From Eledone cirrhosa (lineage: Eukaryota), in NCBI GenBank assembly GCA_964016885.1, contig OZ024741.1, positions 212,722,001 through 212,786,000 on the forward strand: a DNA stretch of 64,000 nucleotides, read 5' to 3'. The notes beneath the pieces are model-generated. The model was not told where the DNA came from, ran no database searches, and saw only the letters and a program-made list of their open reading frames with translations. Of this stretch, positions 23,360 through 64,000 are shown one piece after another. The position numbers and the translations under genes were made by a program. How positions within the stretch are numbered: position 1 is the first letter of the stretch; every line of letters begins with the position of its first letter.

Positions 23360-23665
23360 ACTCTACGACTTGTGTTCTTTAAAGTATTATGAATAAGGTA
23401 TCAAACGGAGTGTCAATATTATAAAGAACAGAGACGGTTTTGAATGTATATCCTCTATTTATTCTATAAACATGTTATACATATTTCAAAGACGTCACAA
23501 TCATTGCAAAATGACCCTTTGACGGCTTCTCATCGGACAGTAAACCTATGTCTACTGCAGTGGACTACCACGTTCCTATGCAACAGTTTGACGTCTCTGA
23601 AATACGTATAACAGAATTATACAATAAATAGAGGATCTGCACTTAATATCTCTCTCTCTCGTTAT
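23360..23665. mobile_element. Foldback element with HHR relic
   Basis: IR 23451-23497 / 23589-23635; on - at 23473-23540: ctgt CCGATGA gaagccgtca..tgacgtcttt GAAA tatg ta taaca. Confidence 0.55.
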
Positions 23666-23666
23666 A

Positions 23667-23791
<125 letters not shown>

Positions 23792-23814
23792 CACATGACA
23801 TACATATATATATA

Positions 23815-23875
<61 letters not shown>

Positions 23876-23902
23876 CACACATATATAAATATATATATAT
23901 AA

Positions 23903-23944
<42 letters not shown>

Positions 23945-24167
23945 CAATTAAGTTAAAAATGTACATCTACATATGCATACTGAAATACTAGTGTGTATAT
24001 GAATACACACACGTATACATATGTAGGTGTACCAAGTCTTTCACTGGATGCTTTACTGTGAGCAGCCCAGCTATTCTGTATGTAAACACACAGACAAACC
24101 GGTTTTTAGAGTCATACTGGTTTTCGGGGGAACACCTTCCCTCTATTCTCCAGAAAGCCAGACAAGG

Positions 24168-24212
24168 AATATTGAACTAGTTTCGTTGTTGTTACAACTC
24201 ATCAGCAATATT
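24168..24212 (-). ncRNA. Minimal type I hammerhead ribozyme
   Basis: aatattg CTGATGA gttg taacaa caac GAAA c ta g tt caatatt; intact core, 7 bp helix I, palindromic helix III region AACTAGTT. Confidence 0.85.
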
Positions 24213-24297
24213 TACCTATCTACCGGCCCTTCTGGAGAATTGTAAAAGCACATATCGTTATATGCTTTTTCTATGAAAATTAGTAGTGGGCAGACTA

Positions 24298-24305
24298 ATT
24301 TGCAT
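24298..24305 (-). promoter_or_regulatory. Octamer motif ATGCAAAT (snRNA DSE-like)
   Basis: 86 nt upstream of the HHR on the same strand; equivalent sites at 440, 8818, 60194 and 61959. Confidence 0.55.
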
Positions 24306-24426
24306 AGAGTGTGAGTACGCACCGGTTCAGCGGAGACGATAAAAACAAATAACGACTAATTTTCATAGAAAAAGCATATAACGATATGTGCTTTTACAAT
24401 TCTCCAGAAGGGCCGGTAGATAGGTA

Positions 24427-24471
24427 AATATTGCTGATGAGTTGTAACAACAACGAAACTAGTTCAATATT
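24427..24471 (+). ncRNA. Minimal type I hammerhead ribozyme (inverted arm copy)
   Basis: Same motif on the + strand. Confidence 0.85.
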
Positions 24472-24762
24472 CCTTGTCTGGCTTTCTGGAGAATAGAGGG
24501 AAGGTGTTCCCCCGAAAACCAGTATGACTCTAAAAACCGGTTTGTCTGTGTGTTTACATACAGAATAGCTGGGCTGCTCACAGTAAAGCATCCAGTGAAA
24601 GACTTGGTACACCTACATATGTATACGTGTGTGTATTCATATACACACTAGTATTTCAGTATGCATATGTAGATGTACATTTTTAACTTAATTGTTTAAG
24701 CGTCAGTCATACAAAAGTGAGTTACAAACGAAGCGAAATTTAATTTCGTTTCGTTATTTGTT

Positions 24763-24789
<27 letters not shown>

Positions 24790-24795
<6 letters not shown>

Positions 24796-25555
24796 CGTAA
24801 AATAAGAAAATTATAAAATTAACTTACTTACTAAAAAATCTCTTCCAACTAATTAGTTTCTGGAATGGAGTAAATATATTTTCCGAAGAAATTTATGGAA
24901 AATCATTCCGTCATCAGGAAAGTCTTTTTCCGTATAGTTCTCCAGGCATAGCGAGGACACTGGAAACTTATTAAAAAAATAATTCAGTGGAATGGAAATA
25001 GCGATGCGTGGACTGGATTCCAAGCCATTGAGAAAATCACTGTCTCTACGTCCGTGGCAAATTCAAAAAGAATCAATCACGTGACATCGAGGTCAATCAG
25101 TGGAAAGCGAGTGGTTATTAAGACAGCGGCCAGCTTACTACCATAGTAGCAGTCATGGCCAAATATTGCTCGACAAATGAATTGGAGATAATTATAAGGA
25201 ATTTATATCTAGTAACATTTATATACACACAGATGCATATCAATGCTAGCAAATATATAGGTTTTGTCTTATTAACAATGTGGTTCAATGCATGGGTTGC
25301 AGAACAATAATATAAGAGACGTAATGATTTTCTATAAATTTCTTCGGAAAATATATTTACTCCATTCCAGAAACTAATTAGTTGGAAGAGATTTTTTAGT
25401 AAGTAAGTTAATTTTATAATTTTCTTATTTTACGTCTCTCATATTATTGTTCTGCAACCCCATGCATTGAACCACATTGTTAATAAGACAAAACCTATAT
25501 ATTTGCTAGCATTGATATGCATCTGTGTGTATATAAATGTTACTAGATATAAATT

Positions 25556-25560
<5 letters not shown>
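24790..25560. mobile_element. Non-coding HHR element family B (~525 nt monomer) with inverted arm
   Basis: Start agagacgtaa (24791) recurs at 25315, then the sequence flips: 25322-25560 is rc of 24790-24908 joined to rc of 25193-25314. TA tracts at both ends. Confidence 0.85.
24842..24922 (-). ncRNA. Type I hammerhead ribozyme with extended helix II
   Basis: ctttc CTGATGA c ggaatg..cattcc a GAAA ctaattag tt ggaag; covaries with 61106-61187. Confidence 0.8.
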
Positions 25561-25594
<34 letters not shown>

Positions 25595-25606
25595 GTAGAG
25601 AAGATA

Positions 25607-25780
25607 ACTGTTTCTACTTTAGGCACAAGGCCAGCAATTACTCAGTAGATTACTGGTACTTTATTTTATCGACCCCGTAAGGATGAATGAAAGGCAAAGT
25701 CAACCTCGGCGGATTTGAACTCAGATCGTAAAGGGACGTAACTATGCTGGAAACCATGGTGTTCGACCCTCTACCGATAC
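25607..25780 (-). mobile_element. SINE S1
   Basis: rc of S1 consensus. Confidence 0.85.
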
Positions 25781-25919
25781 TAGAAGATAACACATCAGAG
25801 AGAGAGAGATGGTGCGCTATCAGTCAAGCAGGGAAAAACCACCATGGAAGGCAAAGTAGACACATAATAATTAAAAGGATAAATCAAAGTACAAATACGT
25901 ACCTTGATAACTATCTAAC

Positions 25920-26002
25920 ACACACGTACAAATCCAACCGGATCTGTTTCACCAACTAATTTGTTGACAGAAGTGATTAGCCTATGGTTCATCAGCGTGT
26001 GT
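25920..26002 (-). ncRNA. Complete type I hammerhead ribozyme
   Basis: acacacg CTGATGA acca..gctaat..attagt tggt GAAA cagatcc ggtt ggatttg TA cgtgtgt: all three helices, intact core, GUA site. Confidence 0.9.
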
Positions 26003-26244
26003 AAGGCTATACGTTTCAGACAATACTAAAAGGATCTAAACGACCGTCCAGCCACACGTCGTAGAGAGAAATTCACAGCGTGCCTAGGGCAGCAACCAGT
26101 GGACTCTGAGGGACGAGCTGCTAGAAAGAGCAGCCCAAACCACTCAGAGAAGTGTGCTCAACCAAACGGAGTAAGAGAAGCTACTGTTATAAGGAGCGAA
26201 ATATCACGATAAATTAACGGAGACATAGACTCTCGCCATTCCCA

Positions 26245-26337
<93 letters not shown>

Positions 26338-26988
26338 TACATACATATATATACATATAAGAATTAAAATACTAGAGTGCGTTGGAGTAAAACACACTCG
26401 TCGTATTATAGAAATGACAGTATCAGATATAGCTCAATGTAATACAACAGAGCCGAAAAATTATAATAAAAATTATAATATATATACATACATATATATA
26501 TATATATATATTGTATGTAATTGCGAGTGTATATTTATTCTTATATGTGTGTGTTTGCCTGAGCCTGTATATATGTGTGTGTATGTGTGTATGTATATAT
26601 ATATATATTATATATACGATTTTTTAATTTTTTTATTCTTTATTTTCTTGTTTTTGTCAACCCCTGTGTTTATAGATAAAGTCGCGTGCGCGTGCAAGCG
26701 TACATTTATTTTTATTTTTATTTTTTATTTTCAATATTTTTCTTGTTTGCTTTATCAGCCACTGAACTATATCGACGTAAATGTACGTGTGTGTATGGTA
26801 TATTGTATATGTATTTATATGTGTGTATATGTATCCATATGCATGTGTGTGTGTGCATGTATGTACATATATGTATGTATATATATATGTGTGTGTGTAA
26901 ATATATATATATATATATGTGTATATATATATATGCATATATGGGTATATGTATGCATGTGTACATGTATGTATTTATGCATGTGTGC

Positions 26989-33739: not shown

Positions 33740-35095
33740 GATACTGATACTCAAAAACTCACCAATGTCCAGTAGTGCTAAGTTTAATATTCTGATCGCA
33801 GACCTGGTATGAGTGATGAAGAATGTGTCCTGCATGTGCGACCCAACTGAAATGGAAAGACACATCCAACACTTCATCAACTGCATGCAGTTCTCTGGCT
33901 ACAACCAAAGAGACAGAGTCAGAGTATACGAAGGAGCCATGGAGAAGTATAAGACCCTCATAGAACTGGACATGAAAGGAATTTGCCCATTATACAGGAG
34001 TAAACCATGGAATAGCTTAGATAGGGAAGGCCACATCATGGTATGACAACCAGAGATACCAGAGTGTCATGTTTGTTGGCGCTATCCCTGGAGGGAAATT
34101 AGCTAACCAGTGTAGAAAGGCCCTGAGAAAGACCCACTTAAAAATTAAGGTGGTAGAAAAGCCAGGAACCACCATAAAATCCCTGATCAGCAGAACCTAC
34201 CATTTTAAGAAAACCCACTGTACTAATAGGAAATGTATCATATGTAAGGTAAACCCCCGGATAAACTGTAAAACTAGAAACGTAGTCTATAGCATAAGAT
34301 GTACAGAGGGTACTTGCAGAAACATGACAACAACATACATAGCCGAGACAGCTCGTAGCATAGGTGAAAGGATAGACCAACACTGGGGGGAACGAAAAGG
34401 AAGAAAAAACTGTTCAGTACTATAAGAACATGCCAGAAAACAACACGACAGGAACATAGACAACATAGAAATTAGAATAATATCTAAACATAGAAATGAT
34501 CCAGCATATAGGCAAATCAGAGATGCCAGTGAAACAGAAAGAAAGAATGGAATAAACAGCACCCAAACAAACAACACTGACCAAAAAAAAGTATAAATAA
34601 ATAGATAGATAAATAAATAAAAAAATACATACACAAGCACAATAACACATATAAACACACACTAGTAAAGATAGAATACATTAACCAATACACAGTCACC
34701 CAATCACGAACACACATCAAACAAAACACTATACACACTCGCAAACGCATGCGCAAAAAAGACAAAATAAAATAAACAAATAAATAAATATATAAACAGA
34801 CTAAATAAAGATGGCATAGAAAATACAATGCAACGGGAGGAAACAATAGCACCACTGACGTTGTTGCAGATGTGCAAGGAAAGAACTTTGATAAACGATA
34901 TATGTGTTTGTGTCTATATTGTATATGTATTATTTTTGACCGTTGGTCAGTCAATGGCAACATTGAGGACCGAATAAATTAGATTGCCGATATATAAGAA
35001 ACAGAAGCGAAAAGCGAAAATCAACCAAACAGTGAGTGTGTTCTGTTATTAATTCTGGCAATATTACACAAATATGACCCTCCCCAAGTATAACA

Positions 35096-39829: not shown

Positions 39830-42800
39830 ATATGGCGGCCGTCGGGGAATAGCCGTGTCTCTAGGGGAGGACGAACCCTCTGTTCTTGGTTGACACTCGT
39901 CCTAGAAGTGGTAACGCGGAATGATTGACCCTTGGAGGTTAAGGATAAAACGCGACAAAATAAAGTAAATGTCAAATGATAAAATCACATACCGGATCGG
40001 CCGTCACCTGGGTCAAAAAGAGCCGCGTCCCTCAGAGAGGAACCAGACTGAGGTCGAAAAATCAGCTAATGGTTCACACCTTCCCATCACTTCGGCGCTG
40101 GAGACCTCCCATAACCGGAATACTCCTACTGAGAGAGAAAAATGATCAAGGGAAGACAATAAAGAAGTTCTTGTGGCTTTCTACACTGCCATGTACTACC
40201 CATCCAATAGATCGAATACAGAACAGACATATATCAACTGGAAAAAGAAACATCCCGAAAACAGCGGCTATATTGACAGTAAAAAACTAGCCAATATACG
40301 AAGAAATATTGTTTTAAAAAAGTTACTAACTGATATAGAAATTGATCAGATCAAAGTCAGCGAAGGGAAAATGAAACATGTGTCAGTGAAAACGAGGTAA
40401 ATTGTAACACTTCGAATCCCAGGGTTGGAGCGGAATCACTGACAACAGATCAAATTAAAGAAAGGATCGAAAAGTTGGAGGGAGTGCATGCTCATGATGA
40501 AACTCAAAATGAAAACAATGAGATCGTAAATGATGAAGAAATGAATGAGAATGAACTTGCCAACTTGAACGATGAAATTATGATCGAATGGATGTAAATG
40601 AAAGAATCTGACATGGGAGAGCGAGACACTCTCCATAAGATCCAGAACTACAAACAGAACCAAAAGATAATACACAAGACTAACATAATTCTCAAAAACA
40701 TTATCATCACAAACAAACTAAACATTACTGATTTAAATCATTTCTATTATGCATCGGCTAAAGTCACCACTCACTTATGTGGAGTGAAAATGACAAAACA
40801 AAGGAATTCTCACAAGAAATCTACTTGGCAAAAGAACATCAAACGCCAAATAAACCTTCTCCGATCTGACATAGAAATTTTAACAAACTACAAAGTAGTT
40901 GAACATGTTAAACAAACTAAAGTTAGAAAATTGAAAAGAAAATACAGTATAAAATCAACAAGTGACATAGACATACTGATAGAAATAATAAAGCAAAAAG
41001 TGTCGGCCAAAGGTGCTGGTATAAGGCGCTTTGAAAAACGATCTAGATTCTATAAGGACAATAATATGTTCAAAAACAACAAAAGAAACTTCTACAGAAA
41101 AAATTGGCAAGTCAACAATAACTGCTAAATCAATACCACCCAAGGAGGAAGTGCAAGAATTCTGGGAAAAGATCTGGGCCGAAGAAAAAGTTCATAATAT
41201 TCATGCCCCATGGATAGACAGACAAATGAAAGATACAGCTCACCTTGAGGAACAAATATGGGAAAATATAACAGTTGAACAGTTGCATTTGGCTCTTAGA
41301 AAAACCAGCAAATGGAAATCCCCAGGAAAAGACAAAATACCTAATTTTTGGATAAATGCCTTCACAGAGTCTCATGAGCTGTTAGCCCAACTTTACAATG
41401 AAATAGTTAAGGAGCCAGAAAAGATACCATCATGGTTAGTAAACGGCATTACATTCCTGCTTCCGAAGAATGATGAGACAAACAATCCCTAAAATTACAG
41501 ACCGATAACTTGCTTGACCACAATGTATAACATTTTAACATCAGTCCTAACTGAATATACATATGACCACCTGATATCAAATGAGCTATTTCCCAATGAG
41601 CAGAAAGGGTGTAAACGAGGCTCATATGGCTGTAAGGATCAGCTTTTGGTTAACAAAATGATACTGGAAGGTTGTCATAATAGACACAAAATATATCAAT
41701 TACTTGGATAGATTATAAAAAAGCATTCGATAGTTTGCCACACAGTTGGATTGAAAAAAGTTTAGACATTTTCAAAATATCTCCCGTTGTCAGGAGGTTC
41801 CTGTCATTCAGTATGAAGACATGGAAAACGACACTCCTTTTGAATAGTGAAAAAAAATCATTGGAAGCTGGAGAAGTTAATATTAATTGTGGAATTTTTC
41901 AGGGTGACTCTTTATCACCGCTTTTATTCTGCATCGCACTTATACCATTAAGTAAAATGCTCAATGAAACAAAACATGGATATAAAGTCTATGACAAAAC
42001 CATTAATCACCTGTTTTACATGGATGACCTGAAACTATTTGCAAAAAATGATGAACAATTGCAAGGGCTATTATCCACTGTGGAGAAGTTCAGTGATGAC
42101 ATTAAAATGGAGTTTGGACTAGATAAATGCGCCAAAGCAACGTTCACCAGAGGAAAGCTGCTGAAGAGTTCAGACATTAATCTTGATCGGGGGAACGTGA
42201 TAAGAGAACTTGATCAAGGAAAACTTACAAATATCTAGGTGTTTGTGAAGGAGACGGAATCAAGCACTCGACAATGAGGTAAAGGATAAGGAAGGAATGT
42301 TACCGCAGAGTAAGAGCAATCTTAAGAACGGAATTGAATGCAAGGAATAGGATCGATGCCATAAACACGCTTGCCATACCAGTAGTAACCTACAGTTACA
42401 ATGTCATCAACTGGTCAAGCACAGAGATCCGTAGGCTCGATACAAAAATTCGAAAATTCTTAACCATGCACAGAATGCATCACCCTAAGGCAGATATAGA
42501 TAGATTATATCTCCCTAGGAAAGAAGGAGGACGTGGGTTAATCCAGTTAGACATTGCGTTAAAAACTGCGACAATTGGATTATCTACATATCTAAGGGAA
42601 TCACATGATTGGATGATCAAACTCGTTTTGAAACACGAAAGCATCAAAAGATCATATTCCATTACAAAAGATGCACAAAGATACAGTAATGGACTACAAA
42701 TTTCAGAAGTCTCATTTACTGCTGAAATGGAAAACACAGAAAAAGCAAAGCAGGTAAAAGTAACTGCAAAGAAAGAACTGCTACAGAAACTGGCTAAGAA

Positions 42801-43605
42801 ATGGCAAGAAAAGCCTCTGTATGGAAAATACCCAGAGCGAGCTAACAATGCTGATGTTGACAAAACTTTAACCCATCAGTGGTTGGCATCCTCCGGACTG
42901 AAATCGTAGACTGAAGGACTGATTATATTAGCACAAGATCAGTGACTGCCAACAAAAACTTACCAAGCCAACATAATAAAAAATGGATGCAACCCATTAT
43001 GCCGTGTATGTAAAAAACAACCAGAGACTATTGATCATATAATTTCAATGTGCAGCCCTATATCCCCAACCGAATACCTAAACAGGCATGACAGAGCTGC
43101 ACAATACATACATTGGATAATGTGTAAGCATTTTGACCTGTCCCATCAAAAGAATTGGTGGGAGCATCAGCCTCCTCCCATACTTGAAAAAGATCACATG
43201 TCAATCTTGTGGAACTTTAGCATCCAAACAGACCGAAAAATAGATGCAAATAGACCTTATATAATACTGAAGGACTTTAAAAAGAGGGTATGCCTACTAA
43301 CTGATATGTCCGTTCCAATAGACAAGAATGTATTTATAAAAACATGTGAATATTCGAGCAAGTGTAAGGACCTGGAGATAGAAATTGGAAAAATGTGGAA
43401 ATTCAGAACTAAAACAATACCAGTGGTTGTAGGCGCTTTAGGAATGATACCTAAGGGGTCTAATGATTACTTATCGCAAATCCCAGGAAACCCGCGTATA
43501 GGACCTTGTTGTCGGACCTTGTTGTCTCTTGAGGTCACTGGTTGTGACTTGGTGATAACTCGTATGAACATCAAGCAAGATAAATGCAACTGTAATAATA
43601 ATAAT
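39830..43605 (+). pseudogene. Decayed R4/Dong-clade non-LTR retrotransposon
   Basis: Fragments WKSPGKDKIPNFW, NEQKGCKRG, GIFQGDSLSPLLF, HLFYMDDLKL, RHD, ANRP(Y)II; multiple stops and frameshifts; ends in (TAA)n. Confidence 0.9.
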
Positions 43606-43820
43606 GATTTCTCGTATAGGCACAAGGCCAGTAATTTTGGGGAGGGGAAAGTCGATTAAATCGACCCCAGTACGTAACTGGTGCTTTATTTTATCGACCC
43701 CGTAAGGATGAAAGGCAAAGTTAACCTCGGCGGGATTTGAACTCAGAATGGCAAGGGCCGTAACTCTATGCGTCAAAGCATGGCGTCCGACCCACTACCG
43801 ATACTGCCAATTCACCGCCC
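43606..43820 (-). mobile_element. SINE S1
   Basis: rc of S1 with variant tail. Confidence 0.85.
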
Positions 43821-44087: not shown

Positions 44088-47000
44088 TCAGATATTCAGG
44101 ACGTATCGGAGGGTTCTTGCTGTTCCAAGCAAGCATGCCTTTTGAAGCGTTCCAAAAAGCGTGAAGGGGCCGATGTTCTTTAACCATCCCTGGAAACTTT
44201 TGGTGTTAGTCCCCAGTGCGCCTATGACAATCGGGATCACTTTGACTTCATGGCAGTTCCAAATCCTTTTCACCTCCCACTTTAGGTCCTGGTATCGGTT
44301 AATTTTCTCCCTCTCCTTCTCTTGCACTCTCGTGTCGAACGGGCAGGCCACATCCACAATCAGGCACGATCTTTTTTCTTTGTCCACAACCACCAGGTCA
44401 GGTCTATTGTGTTCCAGTTTTTTGTCCGTCTGTATCCTAAAATCCCACAGCACCTTCACCTGATTGTTCTCCATCACCGCCTCTGGCCTATGCTCATACC
44501 ATTTCTCAGAATGTGGTAGAATGTTTACTTTGCACAGGTGCCAGTGGATCACCCTGCCCATAACATCGTGTCTCCAGCCCTTATAGTGGGTCTGGGCTAG
44601 GTGTTTACACTCGGACACAATGTGAGCCACAGTCTCCTCTCTCTCTCCACAGATCCTGCACAGTGGGCTGGCCTCCTCCTTGCAGATATGGTGCTTCAAC
44701 CACTTCGTTTTGAGGGCCTGCTCCTGCGCAGCCATTAGCATTCCTTCTGTAGCCTTTTTGAGGTCTCCTCTTCTCAACCAGTTCCATGTCTGTGGATCTC
44801 TAAATTCAGTTTTCTCAAAGAAGGTACTATGAAGGGGTTTTCCCTTAAGGCTGCTCTTCCTCCTTGATGTTATTTCCTCCCTGGACATCCCCTGGCCTAC
44901 TGTCCCCTCCTTCAGTACAGCTCTGAGCATTGGCTCCTTACTATAGGTCACGTATTTGTATAGGTTGTTTTTCTCCATCTGAACACAGTCCTCTATGCTG
45001 ATAAGACCTCTTCCACCCTCAGATCTCCTTAGGTAGAGTCTATCGACATCACTCCTCTTGTGGAACATGTTGTAGATAGTCAATAGCTTCCTAGTCTTCC
45101 TATCCATTTCTTTCTGTTCAGCAACATTCCATCTCAGAATTCCCGCACTGTACCTAATAATAGACACAGCTCGGGAATTTACTGCGCTTATGGCATTTCT
45201 GCTGTTCAGATGTGACTTCAATACGCTCCTTACTCTCCGAATGTATTCAGTTCTTAACAATTCCTTCATTTTTTTGTTCTTTATGCCATCAGCCTCCAGA
45301 ACGCCCAAATACTTGTATCCTTCCTCAGAGTCAATTTCCTTTATCATCTCACCTGTTGGTATCTGGATCCCGTTACTTCTGCTGAACCTACCCCTCTTCA
45401 TCACAATGACTCCACATTTACCAATACCAAACTGCATACATATATCACTGCTGAAAATACGGACAGTGTCAACAAGCACATCCAACTCCTTCTCACTTTT
45501 CCCGAAGAGCTTAAGATCGTCCATGAAGAGGAGGTGATTGATGGTAAGCTCTCCCCTTCCCAACTTGTATCCTGCTCTCACTTTTCGCAGCATAATGGTC
45601 AAGGGCATCAGGGCAAGGACAAACAATAGAGGGGACAGGCTATCTCCCTGGAAGATACCTCTCTTGATCTTCACGCTTCCCAAGGATACTCCAGTTGATG
45701 TCAACTCTGTCTCCCAGGACCCCATACTCCTGCCTAGCAACTGTCTGATGTTATCCGCCACCCTGAAGATCTCCAGGCTTTTGGTGATCCAGGAATGAGG
45801 CACCATGTCAAATGCCTTTCTGTAGTCTATCCATCCCATAGCAAGATCAGTGTGTCTCCTCCTGCAATTCCCCATTACCATCTTATCAATAAGCAACTGG
45901 TCCTTTGTACCACGTGACTTCTTTCGGCATCCTTTCTGTTCGTCCGGTAACAAGTTGTTTGTGTGGAGGTGATGGTAGATTTCCTCAGACACAATGCTCG
46001 TCAACAGTTTCCACATTACGGGCAGACATGTGATAGGTCTATAGTTGGTAGCATCATTACCCTTGATTCGGTCTTTCATTATCAGAACTGTGGTACCTTT
46101 TGTCAACCACTCTGGCACCTCACCCGACACCAAGCAGTCATTGAACATGGCCGTCAGCTTCGGGTGGAGGGATGTTAGATGTTTAATCCAATACCCCTGC
46201 ACACCATCTGGGCCTGGCGATTTCCAGTTGGTTAGTTTTTTGGCTTGTCCCTTAAGAGTTTCAACTGTGATACTCAAATCAGTCTGTTGCTGTGCCTGCT
46301 CACCGATCTCCCTCTGTACTGTCTCAATCCACCCTGCCTGGGCATTGTGTCTAACATCCTGCTCCCATATTCCTCTCCAGAATGTTTTAGTTTGCTCCGC
46401 CCCAGGGATCAAGTCGTTGCCTCTTTCTTTGCCCTCAAGCTGTCCAAACAGCATCTTCTGGTTGTTGTCGAACATGCGGTTCTGTTTATACTGACTGACT
46501 CTGTTCTCGTATCGCCTGATTTTTGCACTCTTTGCTACAATGCGTTGCTTCAATTCCTCTATGATAATATTTAGGTTTTTACTCCTAGTTTTGTATTTTA
46601 TTTCCAGTCTATTTTTAGTGCCTATGTTTTTTAGTGTCCCATTCAGTAGTGACTCAAGCTTTCCTATGTCATTCCTCATTTCCCCGATTTGCCCACTCAG
46701 TCGCTTCTTCCACCACGGCTCTGCTCTTTCTTGTCTGTTGTTTCCTCTCGCTTTTATACCAAGTAGTTTCCTCACCGTATTTGCTGTTGCTTTGAGGATA
46801 TTGTTGCACTGGTGAAGACTCCTCGCCTCAAGGTATGGGATGACTTTGTTTACCTTAGCTGTTGTTTCTTTTAACTTTTTCCTGTCTACAAATCTTAGGT
46901 TCATAGGTCTCCCACTATCATTGTTCAATTCATCTACCACTAAATTTAGGATGTCAACCGAATCTTGTCCTAGCCCGTCAGCATTCATCTCCTCAGTGGC

Positions 47001-47480
47001 CGTATCTCTGTTCCAGGTATTATTTATCTCAGTACTCAGATCATTGTCTGCTTCGGGTGGTTCCTCCGTTCTCAGGACCTCCTCACCTTCATTTCCCACC
47101 GGCTCGCTTGTCTGGCATACTACACCCGCCATCTCCAAGCCATTCTCTCTGCTCAGTTCCTCCAGTTCCAGCTCGCTTATCCACCCATTAGTTCTTATTA
47201 CCCGAGCCTGCCCGGCCAATTTTTGTTCATCTAATTTAAATAAACCAATCTCGTTCCAGATGTTATGCATCCGTCTCCTGTAGCCCCTCTCCTTGGGGTT
47301 ACTTTTCAGGTAGCATTGCATAACAGTTCTATTCAATTCTTTCGTCCAGTTGGTTCTGGCCCCTTTCCTTCTTCTCCTTCCTCCAACATCAGCAGTATTT
47401 GGTTGACAGTCAGGTTCCTGCTGCTGAGCCAGGGGGCACCTGTTGGGTGAGAGTCTGTCACATGACGTTCTAGTCTCCAT
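44088..47480 (-). CDS. Intact R4/Dong-clade non-LTR retrotransposon ORF (RT + CCHC + restriction-like endonuclease), 1130 aa
   Basis: NYRPITCLP, EQKGCRK, WIDYRKAFDMVPH, GIFQGDSLSPLLF, HLLFMDDLKL, CRIC..HIVSEC, RHD, RPDLVV..DVACP..EKINRYQDL; ~75 bp 3' UTR ending in (TAA)n at ~44013. Confidence 0.95.
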   Translation of the reverse strand: METRTSCDRLSPNRCPLAQQQEPDCQPNTADVGGRRRRKGARTNWTKELNRTVMQCYLKSNPKERGYRRRMHNIWNEIGLFKLDEQKLAGQARVIRTNGWISELELEELSRENGLEMAGVVCQTSEPVGNEGEEVLRTEEPPEADNDLSTEINNTWNRDTATEEMNADGLGQDSVDILNLVVDELNNDSGRPMNLRFVDRKKLKETTAKVNKVIPYLEARSLHQCNNILKATANTVRKLLGIKARGNNRQERAEPWWKKRLSGQIGEMRNDIGKLESLLNGTLKNIGTKNRLEIKYKTRSKNLNIIIEELKQRIVAKSAKIRRYENRVSQYKQNRMFDNNQKMLFGQLEGKERGNDLIPGAEQTKTFWRGIWEQDVRHNAQAGWIETVQREIGEQAQQQTDLSITVETLKGQAKKLTNWKSPGPDGVQGYWIKHLTSLHPKLTAMFNDCLVSGEVPEWLTKGTTVLIMKDRIKGNDATNYRPITCLPVMWKLLTSIVSEEIYHHLHTNNLLPDEQKGCRKKSRGTKDQLLIDKMVMGNCRRRHTDLAMGWIDYRKAFDMVPHSWITKSLEIFRVADNIRQLLGRSMGSWETELTSTGVSLGSVKIKRGIFQGDSLSPLLFVLALMPLTIMLRKVRAGYKLGRGELTINHLLFMDDLKLFGKSEKELDVLVDTVRIFSSDICMQFGIGKCGVIVMKRGRFSRSNGIQIPTGEMIKEIDSEEGYKYLGVLEADGIKNKKMKELLRTEYIRRVRSVLKSHLNSRNAISAVNSRAVSIIRYSAGILRWNVAEQKEMDRKTRKLLTIYNMFHKRSDVDRLYLRRSEGGRGLISIEDCVQMEKNNLYKYVTYSKEPMLRAVLKEGTVGQGMSREEITSRRKSSLKGKPLHSTFFEKTEFRDPQTWNWLRRGDLKKATEGMLMAAQEQALKTKWLKHHICKEEASPLCRICGEREETVAHIVSECKHLAQTHYKGWRHDVMGRVIHWHLCKVNILPHSEKWYEHRPEAVMENNQVKVLWDFRIQTDKKLEHNRPDLVVVDKEKRSCLIVDVACPFDTRVQEKEREKINRYQDLKWEVKRIWNCHEVKVIPIVIGALGTNTKSFQGWLKNIGPFTLFGTLQKACLLGTARTLRYVLNI

Positions 47481-47909
47481 TTCACCGTTATTCGAACTGT
47501 TTATGTTCGATATTTAAACACTCTTATCGAGGATTGGCGAATGTATGTTTACATAGCCATCTGTGGATCCGCCATCCCACTTGGCCCTTGTGTGGCATTA
47601 TCACCACGCTGTATACGAACACACATAAATAAACAAACACACAGGCAGAAAGGGCCCCAGAAATGAATAAGCATAAGTTTCATTGTAATGTAGTGTTCGA
47701 ATGTCTGACTTAGTTTTAGTTTTTTAAGTTTTACTTTTTCCCCCCTCTTCTCTGTCCGTCCGCCTGCTTCTCTCTTCATTCTTATTTTCTTTACGTTTTG
47801 GGGGTTTCTTTTTTTTTTGTTTTTGTTTTTCTCTGTTTGTTTTTCTCGTTTTTTGCTGTTGTTGCTGTGCTGCTTTGGTTTTGTTGTTTGTTTTTTCTTT
47901 ATTCTTTTG

Positions 47910-55727: not shown

Positions 55728-56709
55728 TATATATATATATATTTCGTTTCTGAATTTGTTTAGCAAGATTCTTTATCTGAAATCGTGTGTTGAAACCGAT
55801 ATTGTTATACTTTGGGAGGGTCATGTTGCCAATAAGAAACACACGCACCAGTTGCTTTCACTTCAATTTATTATATATTTATAAATTTATAAATCTACAA
55901 ACTTATAAATTTCTGGTTGGTTGGTTCTACAACCAGATAGTTGTTTATATATAGTAATAGTCCTTTCGTCACACACTCTGTGACCTCTTCAGTGACTGGG
56001 GATTCCTTTCTTTGTTTCTGTGCCTTTCCTTTCTTCTGTCCTACGCCATTTTGTTTCTGTGTGTGTGTTGTGTGCTCAGTTTGCGCATGCGCCACATCCG
56101 GGTGTCTGAGTGTGTTTGTGTTCATTTATCTATTTGTTTATTTATTTATTTATTTATTTACATGTTGTTGGTTGGTTGTTTGTTCTATGTGTGTGTGTGT
56201 TTTCATTTTTTCCTTAATTGTAAGTTGTGATGTTGCTGTTCCACACATATTTTCTATTTAATTTTGGTTGTAATTCTTTTATGCTTACTGCCTCTGTAAT
56301 TTGCCTAAACATTGCATCTTTTCTGTGTGTGGATTCTATTTTTATTTCTATGTTCTCTAATTTACCCTTGTGTTCTATCTTAGCATGTTGGTAGAGCACA
56401 GATGATTCTTTATTATCTTGAAGGTCTCGCCAGTGTTCATTTATTCCCCTATACTACGAGCTGTCTCACCTATGTACACTATATGTTTGTTTCTACATTG
56501 TCCTTCAGTACATCTTATGCTATACACTACATTTCTAGTTTTACAGTTAATATGGGGGCTTATTTTACAGGTAATACATTTCTTATCTATACATGAGGGT
56601 CTTTGGAACGGGTATGTCTTGCTAATAAGTGTTTTTACGGAGGTACCTGGTATTTCTACTATCTTAATATTGAGTTTATGTTTATTTAGGGCCCTTCTAA
56701 ATTTGTAAT

Positions 56710-59067
56710 CCCTCCGATAAATCATTCGACCTGCGACGAGTCCACGCCACGACTTTACCATTTAACAAACGCACGCAGTTGCCGTCGCAGGTCGATGAAC
56801 AAACAGAAGCACAATTTAGTATAGCTAAATCCGAACTTAGAAATATTATAGAACAGTATGGCAAGAAGCATAATAGAATAGAGGCCCAGCAACTGGGAGA
56901 AAAATCTGCAAATGGCTTGCGTAAGCTCATGCAGCGCTCACGTAATGGAGAGATAGCATGCTTTCCAACAGACAAGTCTGGCAGAATGTCGGTTGACAGC
57001 CTGCCAAACTACATCCAGGCAATGCAACCCCACATCACTAACACAAGAGAGGTAACACCACAGGAGCATGAGGATAGAGAAAAAGCCCTCAATGCCCATA
57101 TGGTGATGTGGACGAATATAATGCAGCCCAACAAAAGGACTGCTAACAACTTCCAGGCCTGGAACAATGACGTGCCGGCGTTGTATGGGCTTCGAAAAGA
57201 CCATAAAACGGGCTGTGACCCTGTCGCGGGACCACCAACACGGCCAGTCTGTGGAGCTAACATTGCTAGTAACTACAGACTGTCCTACTTCCTCTCCCTG
57301 ATCATACGCCCCATCATTGAGATGTCCCCAGATGTATGTGACAGCACGGAGGACCTCCTCAGCAGAATCGGCGTGAGTAACCGATCTGGGGACCTAACAA
57401 ACTGCATAATAGGCAGTATGGATGTTGTGTCCCAGTATCCATCTATTGACGTGGATTTTGCTGTGGAGAAATGCGTAGAAATGATCAGCGAGAGCAAGGT
57501 TGAGTTCCGTGGGATTGATACCAGTGAGCTGGGACTTCTACTTAAGCTTACCCATAGTAATAGTTACCTAGACACTTATGACCTTAGCAACCTGTGCCCT
57601 ACAAGACCAGCAAGAGGCAGACCACCTACCATTACCTCAATGACCAAGAAAACCCACACAGAGAGATGGAACGTGTGGACCAGAGCAATACGGACACCCG
57701 AAAACCACGATGAACTGAAGAAAATGATTGCACATGCGGTAAAGGCCAGCATAAAATTAACCCTTAAGGAACATATGTTCAAATTTAATGGTAAAACATA
57801 TGCCCAAGAGGAAGGAGCAGCCATTGGTGTTAGCATTGCAGGCGACATAGCTAACTTATTCATGGTATGGTGGGACAGTAGACTTAAACAAAAACTTAAA
57901 TAACAATTAGAAGACAGCTTAACCCTGATAATGTACTCCCGCTACGTAGATGATATAAACATCGTAGTTAAGACACCCCCACTAAAGAAAAGTCAGGAAC
58001 TAGAGAAAAACACAATGGAAAGCATCCAGCAAATAGCAAACTCCATCCACCAGAGCATTAGAGTTACTATAGACTACCCAAGTAGACACCCCAACCATCG
58101 ATTACCTGTACTAGACACAGAGCTCTGGTTAGATACCATTAACAACCAAAAACAAATCCTCCATTCCCATTATGCCAAACCCATGACTTACAAACATCTG
58201 ATCCACCGAAACTCGGCCATTTCGGACCATACCAAAATCAACATACTGATTGCGGATTTGGTACGGGTGATGAGAAATGTGTCCCGCATGTGCAACCCCG
58301 AAGAACTAGAGAGACACATACAACTCTTCATCCACCGTATGCAGTTCTCTGGCTACAATCAGAGAGATAGAATCAGAGTGTATAGAGGAGCCAGAACCAA
58401 ATGGGAAAAAATGGTAAATAATGACATAAATGGGACCTGCCCCTTGTATAGGAGCAAATTTTGGAATAGAATAGAAAGAACTAGGAACAAGGCCAATAGA
58501 ATAAACTCATGGTATGATTGCAATAAATACCAGAGTGTAATGTTCATCAATACAACCCCTAGAGGCGAACTAGCCTACAAATTTAGAAGGGCCCTAAATA
58601 AACATAAACTCAATATAGATAGTAGAAATACCAGGTACCTCCGTAAAAACACTTATTAGCAAGACATACCCGTTCCAAAGACCCTCATGTATAGATAAGA
58701 AATGTATTACCTGTAAAATAAGCGCCCATATTAACTGTAAAACTAGAAATGTAGTGTATAGCATAAGATGTACTGAAGGACAATGTAGAAACAAACATAT
58801 AGTGTACATAGGTGAGACAGCTCGTAGTATAGGGGAATAAATGAACACTGGCGAGACCTTCAAGATAATAAAGAATCATCTGTGCTCTACCAACATGCTA
58901 AGATAGAACACAAGGGTAAATTAGAGAACATAGAAATAAAAATAGAATCCACACACAGAAAAGATGCAATGTTTAGGCAAATTACAGAGGCAGTAAGCAT
59001 AAAAGAATTACAACCAAAATTAAATAGAAAATATGAGTGGAACAGCAACATCACAACTTACAATTAA
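56710..59067 (+). pseudogene. PLE reverse transcriptase + GIY-YIG endonuclease (1 stop, 2 frameshifts)
   Basis: PTDKSG, LYGLRKDHK, RPVCG, SMDVVSQYPSI, QEEGAAIG, YSRYVDDI, LPVLD, CITC..CKTRNVVYSIRC..YIGETARS; TAA at 57901, frameshifts at ~58616 and ~58837. Confidence 0.92.
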
Positions 59068-59277
59068 GGAAAAAATGAAAACACACACACACATAGAACA
59101 AACAACCAACCAACAACATGTAAATAAATAAATAAATAAACAAATAGATAAATGAACACAAACACACACAGACACCCGGATGTGGCGCATGCGCAAACTG
59201 AGCACACAACACACACACAGAAACAAAATGGCGTAGGACAGAAGAAAGGAAAGGCACAGAAACAAAGAAAGGAATCC

Positions 59278-59325
59278 CCAGTCACTGAAGAGGTCACAGA
59301 GTGTGTGACGAAAGGACTATTACTA
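59278..59325 (+). ncRNA. PLE-associated minimal HHR (inverted copy at ~55954-56000)
   Basis: agtca CTGAAGA g gtcaca gagtg tgtgac GAAA g ga c TA ttact; helix I has a mismatch. Confidence 0.65.
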
Positions 59326-59478
59326 TATATAAACAACTATCTGGTTGTAGAACCAACCAACCAACCAACCAGAAATTTATAAGTTTGTAGATTTATAAAT
59401 TTATAAATATATAATAAATTGAAGTGAAAGCAACTGGTGCGTGTGTTTCTTATTGGCAACATGACCCTCCCAAAGTAT

Positions 59479-59549
<71 letters not shown>

Positions 59550-61606: not shown

Positions 61607-61607
<1 letters not shown>

Positions 61608-62677
61608 ATTAAGTTAAAAATGTACATCTACATATGCATACTGAAATACTAGTGTGTATATGAATACACACACGTATACATATGCAGATGTAACAAGTCT
61701 TTCACTGGTTGCTTTACTGTGAGCAACCCAGCTATTCTGTATGTAAACACACAGACAAACCGGTTTTTAGAGTCATACTGGTTTTCGAGGAAACACCTTC
61801 CCTCTATTCTCTAGAAAGCCAGACAAGGAATATTGAACTAGTTTCGTTGCTGTCACAACTCATCAGCAATATTTACCTATCTACCGGCCTTTCTGGAGAA
61901 TTGTAAAAGCACATATCGTTATATGCTTTTTCTATGAAAATTAGTAGTGGGCAGACCAATTTGCATAGAGTGTGAGTACGCACCGGTTCAGCGGAGACGA
62001 TAAAAACAAATAACGAAACGAAATTAAATTTCGTTTCGTTTGTAACTCACTTTTGTATGACTGACGCTTAAACAATTAAGTTAAAAATGTACATCTACAT
62101 ATGCATACTGAAATACTAGTGTGTATATGAATACACACACGTATACATATGCAGATGTAACAAGTCTTTCACTGGTTGCTTTACTGTGAGCAACCCAGCT
62201 ATTCTGTATGTAAACACACAGACAAACCGGTTTTTAGAGTCATACTGGTTTTCGAGGAAACACCTTCCCTCTATTCTCCAGAAAGCCAGACAAGCATATA
62301 ACGATATGTGCTTTTACAATTCTCCAGAAAGGCCGGTAGATAGGTAAATATTGCTGATGAGTTGTAACAACGAAACTAGTTCAATATTCCTTGTCTGGCT
62401 TTCTAGAGAATAGAGGGAAGGTGTTTCCTCGAAAACCAGTATGACTCTAAAAACCGGTTTGTCTGTGTGTTTACATACAGAATAGCTGGGTTGCTCACAG
62501 TAAAGCAACCAGTGAAAGACTTGTTACATCTGCATATGTATACGTGTGTGTATTCATATACACACTAGTATTTCAGTATGCATATGTAGATGTACATTTT
62601 TAACTTAATTGTTTAAGCGTCAGTCATACAAAAGTGAGTTACAAACGAAACGAAATTTAATTTCGTTTCGTTATTTG

Positions 62678-62682
<5 letters not shown>
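61607..62682. mobile_element. Family A element: ~1.47 tandem 467-nt monomers plus inverted arm
   Basis: aattaagttaaaaatgtacatc at 61607 and 62074; flip at ~62294; HHRs at 61829-61873 (-) and 62347-62388 (+); octamer at 61959. Confidence 0.9.
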
Positions 62683-63073: not shown

Positions 63074-63311
63074 ATATAGATAATCTAGCTGTCGTCTGTT
63101 CTACAGTGTGGATGTCATTCACTTCGCACAGAAGTTTTGTTCAAATTTATTGAGGAAATTTTGTGAGTTCAAACTTAATTTTGATACAATTGTGTAGCAT
63201 GACCCTCCGTCTGAACTGTCAGGCGGTGGGTCAGCTCATCTTTACCCCTCCTAGAGGTGAAAAACCTGTTTTAAAAAATTTTGTGTAAAAACTTTCAATC
63301 GTCTAACAGAA

Positions 63312-64000
63312 ATGTTAAACGCAGCGAACGAAAATAGTGGTGGGGGGACAGCGGTAAGAGTTGTAAGCTCGCACGCTTTAGTCCTCCCTTCCTTCCCAAC
63401 TAACGTCATAGAGAAGGAAGGAAAAATGAAAATAAAAACGGACGAATCTGCGGAGAAAAAATTAAATGACGAAATAAATCTGGACTTGGATTCCAACAAC
63501 GGAAAAAAAAAATTTGAAAAATTGCATGACAATACTAATAACACAAACAAAGACACAACAAACAAAAAAATAACAGTTGAAAATAACATCATATCAGAAA
63601 ACAAAGCAGACGACAAGATTTCATTTGCACAGAAAACAAAGAAATCTTTGACTTATATAGCGGAAAACATTTCAGATGTGGTACGAAGGATCACGGACGC
63701 AAAACAATACATAAGTGAAGGTGAGAATGGTATTTTATTGGTAAAAATGCCTCAAGAATTCACGAAAGACATTGAAAGCCGAACGGTCAAGTTTCGGACC
63801 ATCAACAACAGTACAAAAAAAACCTGAACAGCCTTCTCAAGCAGATATCAAAACAGTACTCGCAGAAGTACTGAATGAAACCACTTTCATAAGAAAAGAC
63901 AGACTGTATGGAAGCCTAGCAATTATCATGAAGAACGAATCGGCGGCAAAAAAATGTGCTTTGTCACCGATTAGTTCGAAAAATTTCACCTTTTATCCAT
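63312..64000 (+). pseudogene. Probable LINE ORF1 N-terminus, frameshifted at ~63822 and running off the window
   Basis: 171 aa ORF with low-complexity K/N/E region then SFAQK; continues in another frame PEQPSQADIKTVLAEVLNETTFIRKDRLYGSLAII; preceded by a ~200 bp leader after (TCTA)n. Assignment is by general resemblance only. Confidence 0.45.

Follow-up and report, generated by a model that had tools for sequence, protein, structure and literature searches.

The 64-kb stretch of octopod DNA analysed here (the window) carries on its minus strand, at 25919..26003, a type I hammerhead ribozyme (HHR) motif delimited by a descriptor scan, by folding and by a chance test on simulated windows. As read by the scan on that strand, helix I is composed of seven Watson-Crick pairs (26002-25996 with 25920-25926) plus a U-G pair, the CUGAUGA core occupies 25995-25989 and GAAA 25950-25947, and a helix II of 4 bp (25988-25985 with 25951-25954) encloses a 30-nt insert. 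Helix III is formed by seven pairs, one of them G-U, plus the A15.1-U16.1 pair, and is capped by a GGUU loop. The G-U-A triplet corresponds to minus-strand positions 25929-25927, and the predicted cleavage site lies on the same strand between A25927 and C25926 (25926..25927), as given by the position of H17, which we take from hammerhead numbering to be 25927, with the cut on its 3′ side. The motif presents CUGANGA, GAAA and NUH in the order of type I HHRs, an open helix I and three complementary helices (7-8, 4 and 7 pairs), and the 10.1-11.1 pair of the window copy is A25988-U25951 in place of the usual, although not absolute, G10.1-C11.1. The descriptor scan bears out the fold described in the initial annotation (helices I to III, an intact core and a GUA site on the minus strand), which had passed over the A-U pair at the start of helix II.

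Such a fold was obtained in none of 150 simulated 64-kb windows, generated by a Markov process with the dinucleotide make-up of the window and scanned on both strands under three helix-length settings, and once in the real window. Judging from its sequence, 26003-25919 is a real type I hammerhead fold for which cleavage is predicted, distinct from the minimal Penelope-type motifs of the window. The remaining hammerhead-like matches of the scan in the window were four minimal motifs, at 24427-24471 (+), 24212-24168 (-), 62347-62388 (+) and 61873-61829 (-), which belong to one Penelope-type family, and two weak candidates. Rfam searches gave nothing at gathering score across the window and, up to an E value of 5 in the region 23600-26600, matched only two minimal hammerheads and missed the type I motif at 26003-25919; as the Rfam models miss this architecture, families of this kind may be undercounted. 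Exact and gapped pattern scans of metagenome contigs, viral contigs and GTDB genomes found no match, as expected for animal DNA. A separate hammerhead-like sequence, at 31088-31028 (-), shows a helix I of 7 bp, CUGAUGA, a long AU-rich helix II, GAAA, a helix III of one pair and a UA site.

Folding with ViennaRNA gave helix III a probability of about 1.0 in all contexts folded, so that a dimer is unnecessary for building it. Helix I reached a probability of 0.82 alone and of 0.22 with its flanks, where a two-base slip competes, and helix II of the window copy one of 0.02-0.03 in the nearest-neighbour model, which leaves pseudoknots and Mg2+ outside, owing to pairing of the core with 25977-25974 in the helix II insert. 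In this model, the ensemble is 3.6-4.6 kcal/mol more stable than the active-like fold; hammerhead cores are often mispaired by nearest-neighbour models. The earlier expectation that this HHR should fold as a monomer, in contrast to the minimal motifs, holds for helix III, which forms without a dimer in a fold distinct from theirs; for the active form of the window copy it is at most tentative, helix II being disfavoured in the model. The window copy may be partly decayed, since some of the letters related to the core mispairing (25973, 25977, 25960 and 25956) differ in its relatives, where the variants are unphased and come from several subfamilies. As a whole, the minus strand of the element folds better than 100 of 100 shuffled sequences (z -2.7); the plus strand folds about equally well (z -2.7), and therefore the folding score does not choose the strand. 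Just downstream of the hammerhead, an 11-pair hairpin at 25883-25908 (-) is predicted with a probability near 1.0, and several of its positions vary in relatives.

The 30-nt insert that makes up loop II (25955..25984, minus strand) is marked in relatives by a trough in depth and by loose ends at 25954 and 25986, and folding indicates that in the window copy it can mispair with the core. Its start, 25983-25978, is fully complementary to the six bases directly 5′ of helix I (26009-26004), so 26004..26009 (minus strand) could be the 5′ strand of a candidate 6-bp pseudoknot made of six Watson-Crick pairs. The energy of this pairing was equalled in 146 of 5000 loop shuffles, a P of about 0.03, and in 2 of the 334 windows taken elsewhere in the element; these figures are optimistic because the pairing was chosen post hoc. 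In relatives, a change of A to G at 25983 (about three quarters of contig depth) retains a U-G pair in the pseudoknot and a change of A to U at 25977 (31-39%) would extend it by one pair, and the changes seen among the variants listed are one-sided, with no two-sided (compensatory) ones. In terms of energy, a cost of +7.2 to +8.7 kcal/mol stands against -12.2 of stacking with the pseudoknot penalty left out, and freeing the pseudoknot strands alone still leaves helix II at a probability of 0.0 in the model. The 6 bp formed by loop II with the flank of helix I might thus make up for the disfavoured helix II only as a possibility in this energy balance. According to the available text of Perreault et al. 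2011 (PMC3088659), pseudoknots of at least 4 pairs between stems I and II replace the loop contacts in about 40% of representatives of all three HHR types, being common in hammerheads and needed for speed. Compared with those described there, the octopod pseudoknot is a candidate, given its shuffling probability and one-sided variants, and its loop II is unusually long. Two other pairings were discarded. A second pseudoknot, between loop II and the sequence 3′ of helix I, stayed at chance level (601 of 5000 shuffles and 45 of 332 windows), and a helix that would join both ends of the element into a circle (26190-26185 with 25787-25792) had a probability of 0.001.

The HHR is carried by a non-coding repeat copy, whose body spans 25782..26245 on the minus strand (464 bp, GC 0.433), with a longest stop-free frame of 60 codons and a longest ATG frame of 25 codons. 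Neither a coding remnant in its six frames, nor an RT or GIY-YIG ORF in or beside it, nor a terminal direct repeat within it was found, and no second hammerhead appeared on either strand of the element when one core mismatch was tolerated in CUGANGA. The 3′ end of the element is interrupted by a younger SINE-like repeat (25609..25781), probably on the minus strand as suggested by its truncation and AT-rich tail, which matches 13 other places in the window at E<1e-20. A 10-bp target-site duplication surrounds this insertion (left copy 25599..25608, right copy 25782-25791), so the SINE inserted inside the end of the hammerhead-bearing segment, and the duplication would leave the last element bases, displaced by the SINE, at 25595..25598 (minus strand), adjoining the left TA run. 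Before the insertion, the element would have measured about 468 bp (464 plus 4 nt). A repeat scan delimited (TA)n runs at its 3′ end (25559..25594) and at its 5′ end (26246..26359), and these TA runs make up the ends of the hammerhead element, for which no poly(A) or simple-repeat tail and no target duplication were recognised. The element contains no tRNA. Neither strand has a Pol III A box, and the only Pol III B-like words are two, each with 2 mismatches, on the plus strand. No host exon was recognised around it, with Pfam giving only RT domains. Directly left of the bounding TA run lies a palindromic MITE-like element (25193-25562), with a partial copy at 24790-24912.

As previously annotated, the segment 25790-26250 is single in the window, where blastn (word 7) found no second copy of 25790-26245. 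The uniqueness that this implied has to be abandoned, since the segment belongs to a many-copy family in public sequence runs. A total of 760, 834 and 734 contigs from three runs of one sample, together with 1343 reads of a second sample, aligned to the 476 bases analysed, all 30 bins of which were covered in 4 of 4 runs. These four were taken from six runs, three contig sets and three raw-read runs, the latter chosen by species label. The three contig sets have only 13-17% of sampled words in common with the window and may come from another species; the contigs are mostly 90-99% alike to the window copy. These alignments place the 25782-26245 segment in a family of many copies, present either in the same species or in a related one. 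Among the 40 variants listed out of 118, which affect 39 positions, none falls in the 39 positions of the core, helix I and the helix III stem, which would have a P of 0.025 if random among those listed, in alignments that favour conserved places. Loop II is the most variable part in relatives, and loop III is not conserved either: in about 85-98% of contig depth other bases occupy 25938-25940, so that the top pair of helix III is U-G instead of C-G and the GGUU loop is altered. Position 11.1 is C in 57-69% of contig depth, and at many positions the window copy departs from most of the family.

In 23, 24 and 19 contigs (three runs) the family passes into a TA run at precisely 26201, a 3′ end in the hammerhead sense, and 46, 59 and 43 contigs of the three runs continue beyond 26243 into one other sequence. 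The 43 bp between both of these ends (26201..26243, minus strand) form a terminal piece resembling a Penelope 'tail', with which the window copy starts. Moreover, one contig in each of the three runs shows an opposite-strand joint of 25835/25840 to 26243, and the three may all derive from a single locus of that sample. The available texts of PMC8557442 and PMC11167929 attribute to Penelope elements TA targets, inverted stubs and double 3′ ends at fixed positions, and the latter gives a tail of 30-40 bp. The Penelope-type family with minimal hammerheads in the window itself, found in inverted arrangement at 23944-24762 and 61607-62681, has two 3′ ends on (TA)n that lie 66 nt apart, with or without a 66-nt tail (24697-24762). 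The end structure found in the family of the element is that of Penelope elements, with (TA)n targets, fixed 3′ ends with an optional tail and inverted ends, and no sequence likeness to the Penelope ends of the window was detected.

Some features of the contigs bear on the size of the unit. One contig shows a backward joint from 26243 to 25801, with the letters between them undefined, and the sequence that follows 26243 in relatives has a far end resembling 25598-25607, with 7 letters shared by eye with 25598-25604. This 7-nt word occurs once in the element, and the overlap falls at the poorly supported far end of the consensus. Such weak signs would be compatible with a closed head-to-tail unit of about 480 bp. 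If the overlap is real, the unit closes at about 480 bp and the window copy is nearly one full unit, with its 3′ end lying some 63 nt upstream of the 26201 end. Contigs of the relatives are continuous across 25965-26144 and 26099-26243, in the window copy only some 200 nt separate the tail-like piece from the hammerhead downstream of it, and about 315 nt of family sequence precede the cut site. In the four runs, no single contig or read spans the whole stretch and no tandem array was seen.

What was observed directly comprises the motif, the family of repeats that carries it, the absence of an ORF, the flanking TA runs and the SINE insertion that came later. The best explanation, which we regard as probable, is that the hammerhead element belongs to an octopod non-LTR retrozyme with units of about 480 bp and is a solo copy of roughly that length. 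At the sequence level, the repeat has the many copies, the lack of coding capacity and the GC content below 50% of retrozymes. By analogy with them, tandem copies elsewhere in the genome would be transcribed, and the hammerhead would cut the tandem transcripts at GUA into unit lengths, which could possibly be circularised. A single ribozyme is present in the window copy, which could therefore be cut once and could not release a unit on its own. In the folded RNA, the pseudoknot of the 5′ flank of helix I with loop II would join helices I and II, replacing the usual loop contacts. Finally, the units would likely be pasted into (TA)n microsatellites by a Penelope reverse transcriptase and endonuclease.

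Retrozymes are known from mussels, corals and salamanders, and the available text of PMC7229834 places most canonical type I HHRs of animals in non-LTR retrozymes, with units of 150-450 bp. In Mytilus, this source (Cervera and de la Pena 2020) describes in its accessible part a family of 350-390 bp, whose motif has few of the nucleotides that usually make the loop 1-loop 2 contacts and cleaves slowly. As in that and other metazoan non-LTR retrozymes, the octopod element combines a type I HHR and a stable helix III with a short, non-coding, many-copy mollusc repeat of less than 50% GC, and shares its genome with Penelope elements that bear minimal hammerheads. Unlike the Mytilus family, it is known from sequence alone, as a solo copy with an estimated size of about 480 bp, a helix III of 7 bp, a loop II of 30 nt, a candidate pseudoknot and ends on TA runs without target duplication. 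The estimated 480 bp exceed the range of PMC7229834, but lie within the 51-972 bp given in the accessible part of a 2026 preprint (Li, Clavereau and Pollet; 10.64898/2026.07.22.740005). As far as its text is available, this preprint, which covers 31 vertebrates, 3 insects, 1 anthozoan and no mollusc, describes solo retrozyme monomers as common, links them to Penelope-like elements by pLTR homology and reports cleavage in 1 of 9 frog elements tested, whereas the Penelope link of the octopod element is one of end structure. Invertebrate retrozyme HHRs mostly have a stable helix III and cleave as monomers, according to the accessible part of PMC7761336.

A different origin, which we consider possible although clearly less probable than a solo retrozyme, would be the terminal repeat (pLTR) or an internally deleted form of an autonomous Penelope-like element, with the window copy as a truncated end. 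The TA targeting, the fixed end at 26201, the inverted joints and the tail-like 43-bp piece are Penelope signatures, and copies of Penelope elements are mostly truncated ends. Penelope-like elements have in common with the octopod motif its type I topology and with the carrier its TA targets, tails and inverted ends, and hammerheads with a large helix III, active as monomers, occur in those of fungi and protists (PMC4209133). However, the HHRs of metazoan Penelope elements, including those of the window, are either minimal or built with a helix III that is short and palindromic (PMC4209133), whereas the 7 bp of the octopod helix III are kept in relatives as far as their variants were listed. 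Likewise, animal pLTR motifs have no or a short palindromic helix III and a G10.1-C11.1 pair, in contrast to the long helix III, the A-U pair and the lack of an attached ORF in the octopod element, where neither a coding remnant in six frames nor an RT/GIY-YIG ORF joined to the window copy was found. The tail-like piece some 200 nt upstream of the HHR and the continuity of the contigs across 25965-26144 and 26099-26243 leave no space for an ORF there, and one contig passes from 26243 to 25801.

The ribozyme could also mark the end of some other retroelement, either the 5′ end of a LINE or a SINE-like unit, excising itself from read-through transcripts, with the TA flanks reflecting the density of microsatellites in the genome. 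The window is indeed very rich in TA runs and contains LINE RT frames at 44088-47513 and 41684-42238 (Pfam RVT_1), and ribozymes at the 5′ ends of LINEs are recorded in the accessible text of PMC7761336. We regard this origin as improbable, however, since the element is devoid of a poly(A) or simple-repeat tail, a recognised target duplication, a Pol III A box and a tRNA, its relatives show inverted joints and meet (TA)n at a single fixed base, and the cut site is preceded by about 315 nt of family sequence. Least credible, and very improbable in our view, is a single-copy ribozyme domesticated by the host to process an intron or other host transcript, as amniote HH9/HH10, because the occurrence of one copy in the window, the intact core and the long stable helices are outweighed by the many-copy family, by the departure of the window copy from its majority at many positions and by a setting of mobile-element debris with a SINE insertion and no recognised host exon.

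With regard to the significance of the solo retrozyme reading, the hammerhead of the window is genuine, and the mobile repeat that carries it is of an ordinary kind, although probably undescribed for octopods. No description of an octopus or cephalopod retrozyme, or of an octopus hammerhead, was found in the openly accessible papers searched, and the giant squid genome paper offers, in its available text, only a count of 235 Rfam hammerhead matches. One more family of this type was to be expected, as hammerhead-bearing repeats are already known in many animals, the mussel included, and the retrozyme reading, if true, adds cephalopods to the hosts. The features that stand out are the long helix III, the long loop II, the candidate pseudoknot and the Penelope-type ends. 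The case for one enzyme or another as the mover of animal retrozymes still relies on pLTR homology and co-occurrence, and a family with Penelope-type tails and inversions would make Penelope mobilisation testable from an assembly. A Penelope tail and inversion in the absence of pLTR homology would, if true, be direct structural evidence for the mobilisation of a retrozyme in trans. In its fullest form, the proposal would make this the first retrozyme from a cephalopod, with abundant units of about 480 nt, a hammerhead that combines a long helix III with a locking Watson-Crick pseudoknot in place of the usual loop contacts of animals, and insertions with Penelope tails and inversions but no pLTR homology; it is put forward as a tentative idea that is rather unlikely to hold in all its parts.

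Other mobile elements in the window include a frameshifted Penelope-like element at 55799-59486, with RT frames at 56701-58659, a cysteine linker, an endonuclease-like end and an inverted copy of its 3′ part. Its RT frame at 56701-57900 is 70% identical to an Octopus vulgaris protein, which makes an octopod the probable host, and its terminal repeat shows by eye a hammerhead-like core near 59280-59330, which was missed by the descriptor. An older Penelope-like 3′ fragment at 33786-34900, 69% similar to the kind at 55799-59486, begins beside a TA run. Among LINE-type RT elements, the one at 44088-47513 (-) keeps an open frame of 1141 codons with RVT_1 and may be young, and the one at 40598-43659 (+) is frameshifted. 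Finally, a host-exon-like open frame of 188 codons lies at 63261-63827 (+), with no match in Pfam or Atlas.
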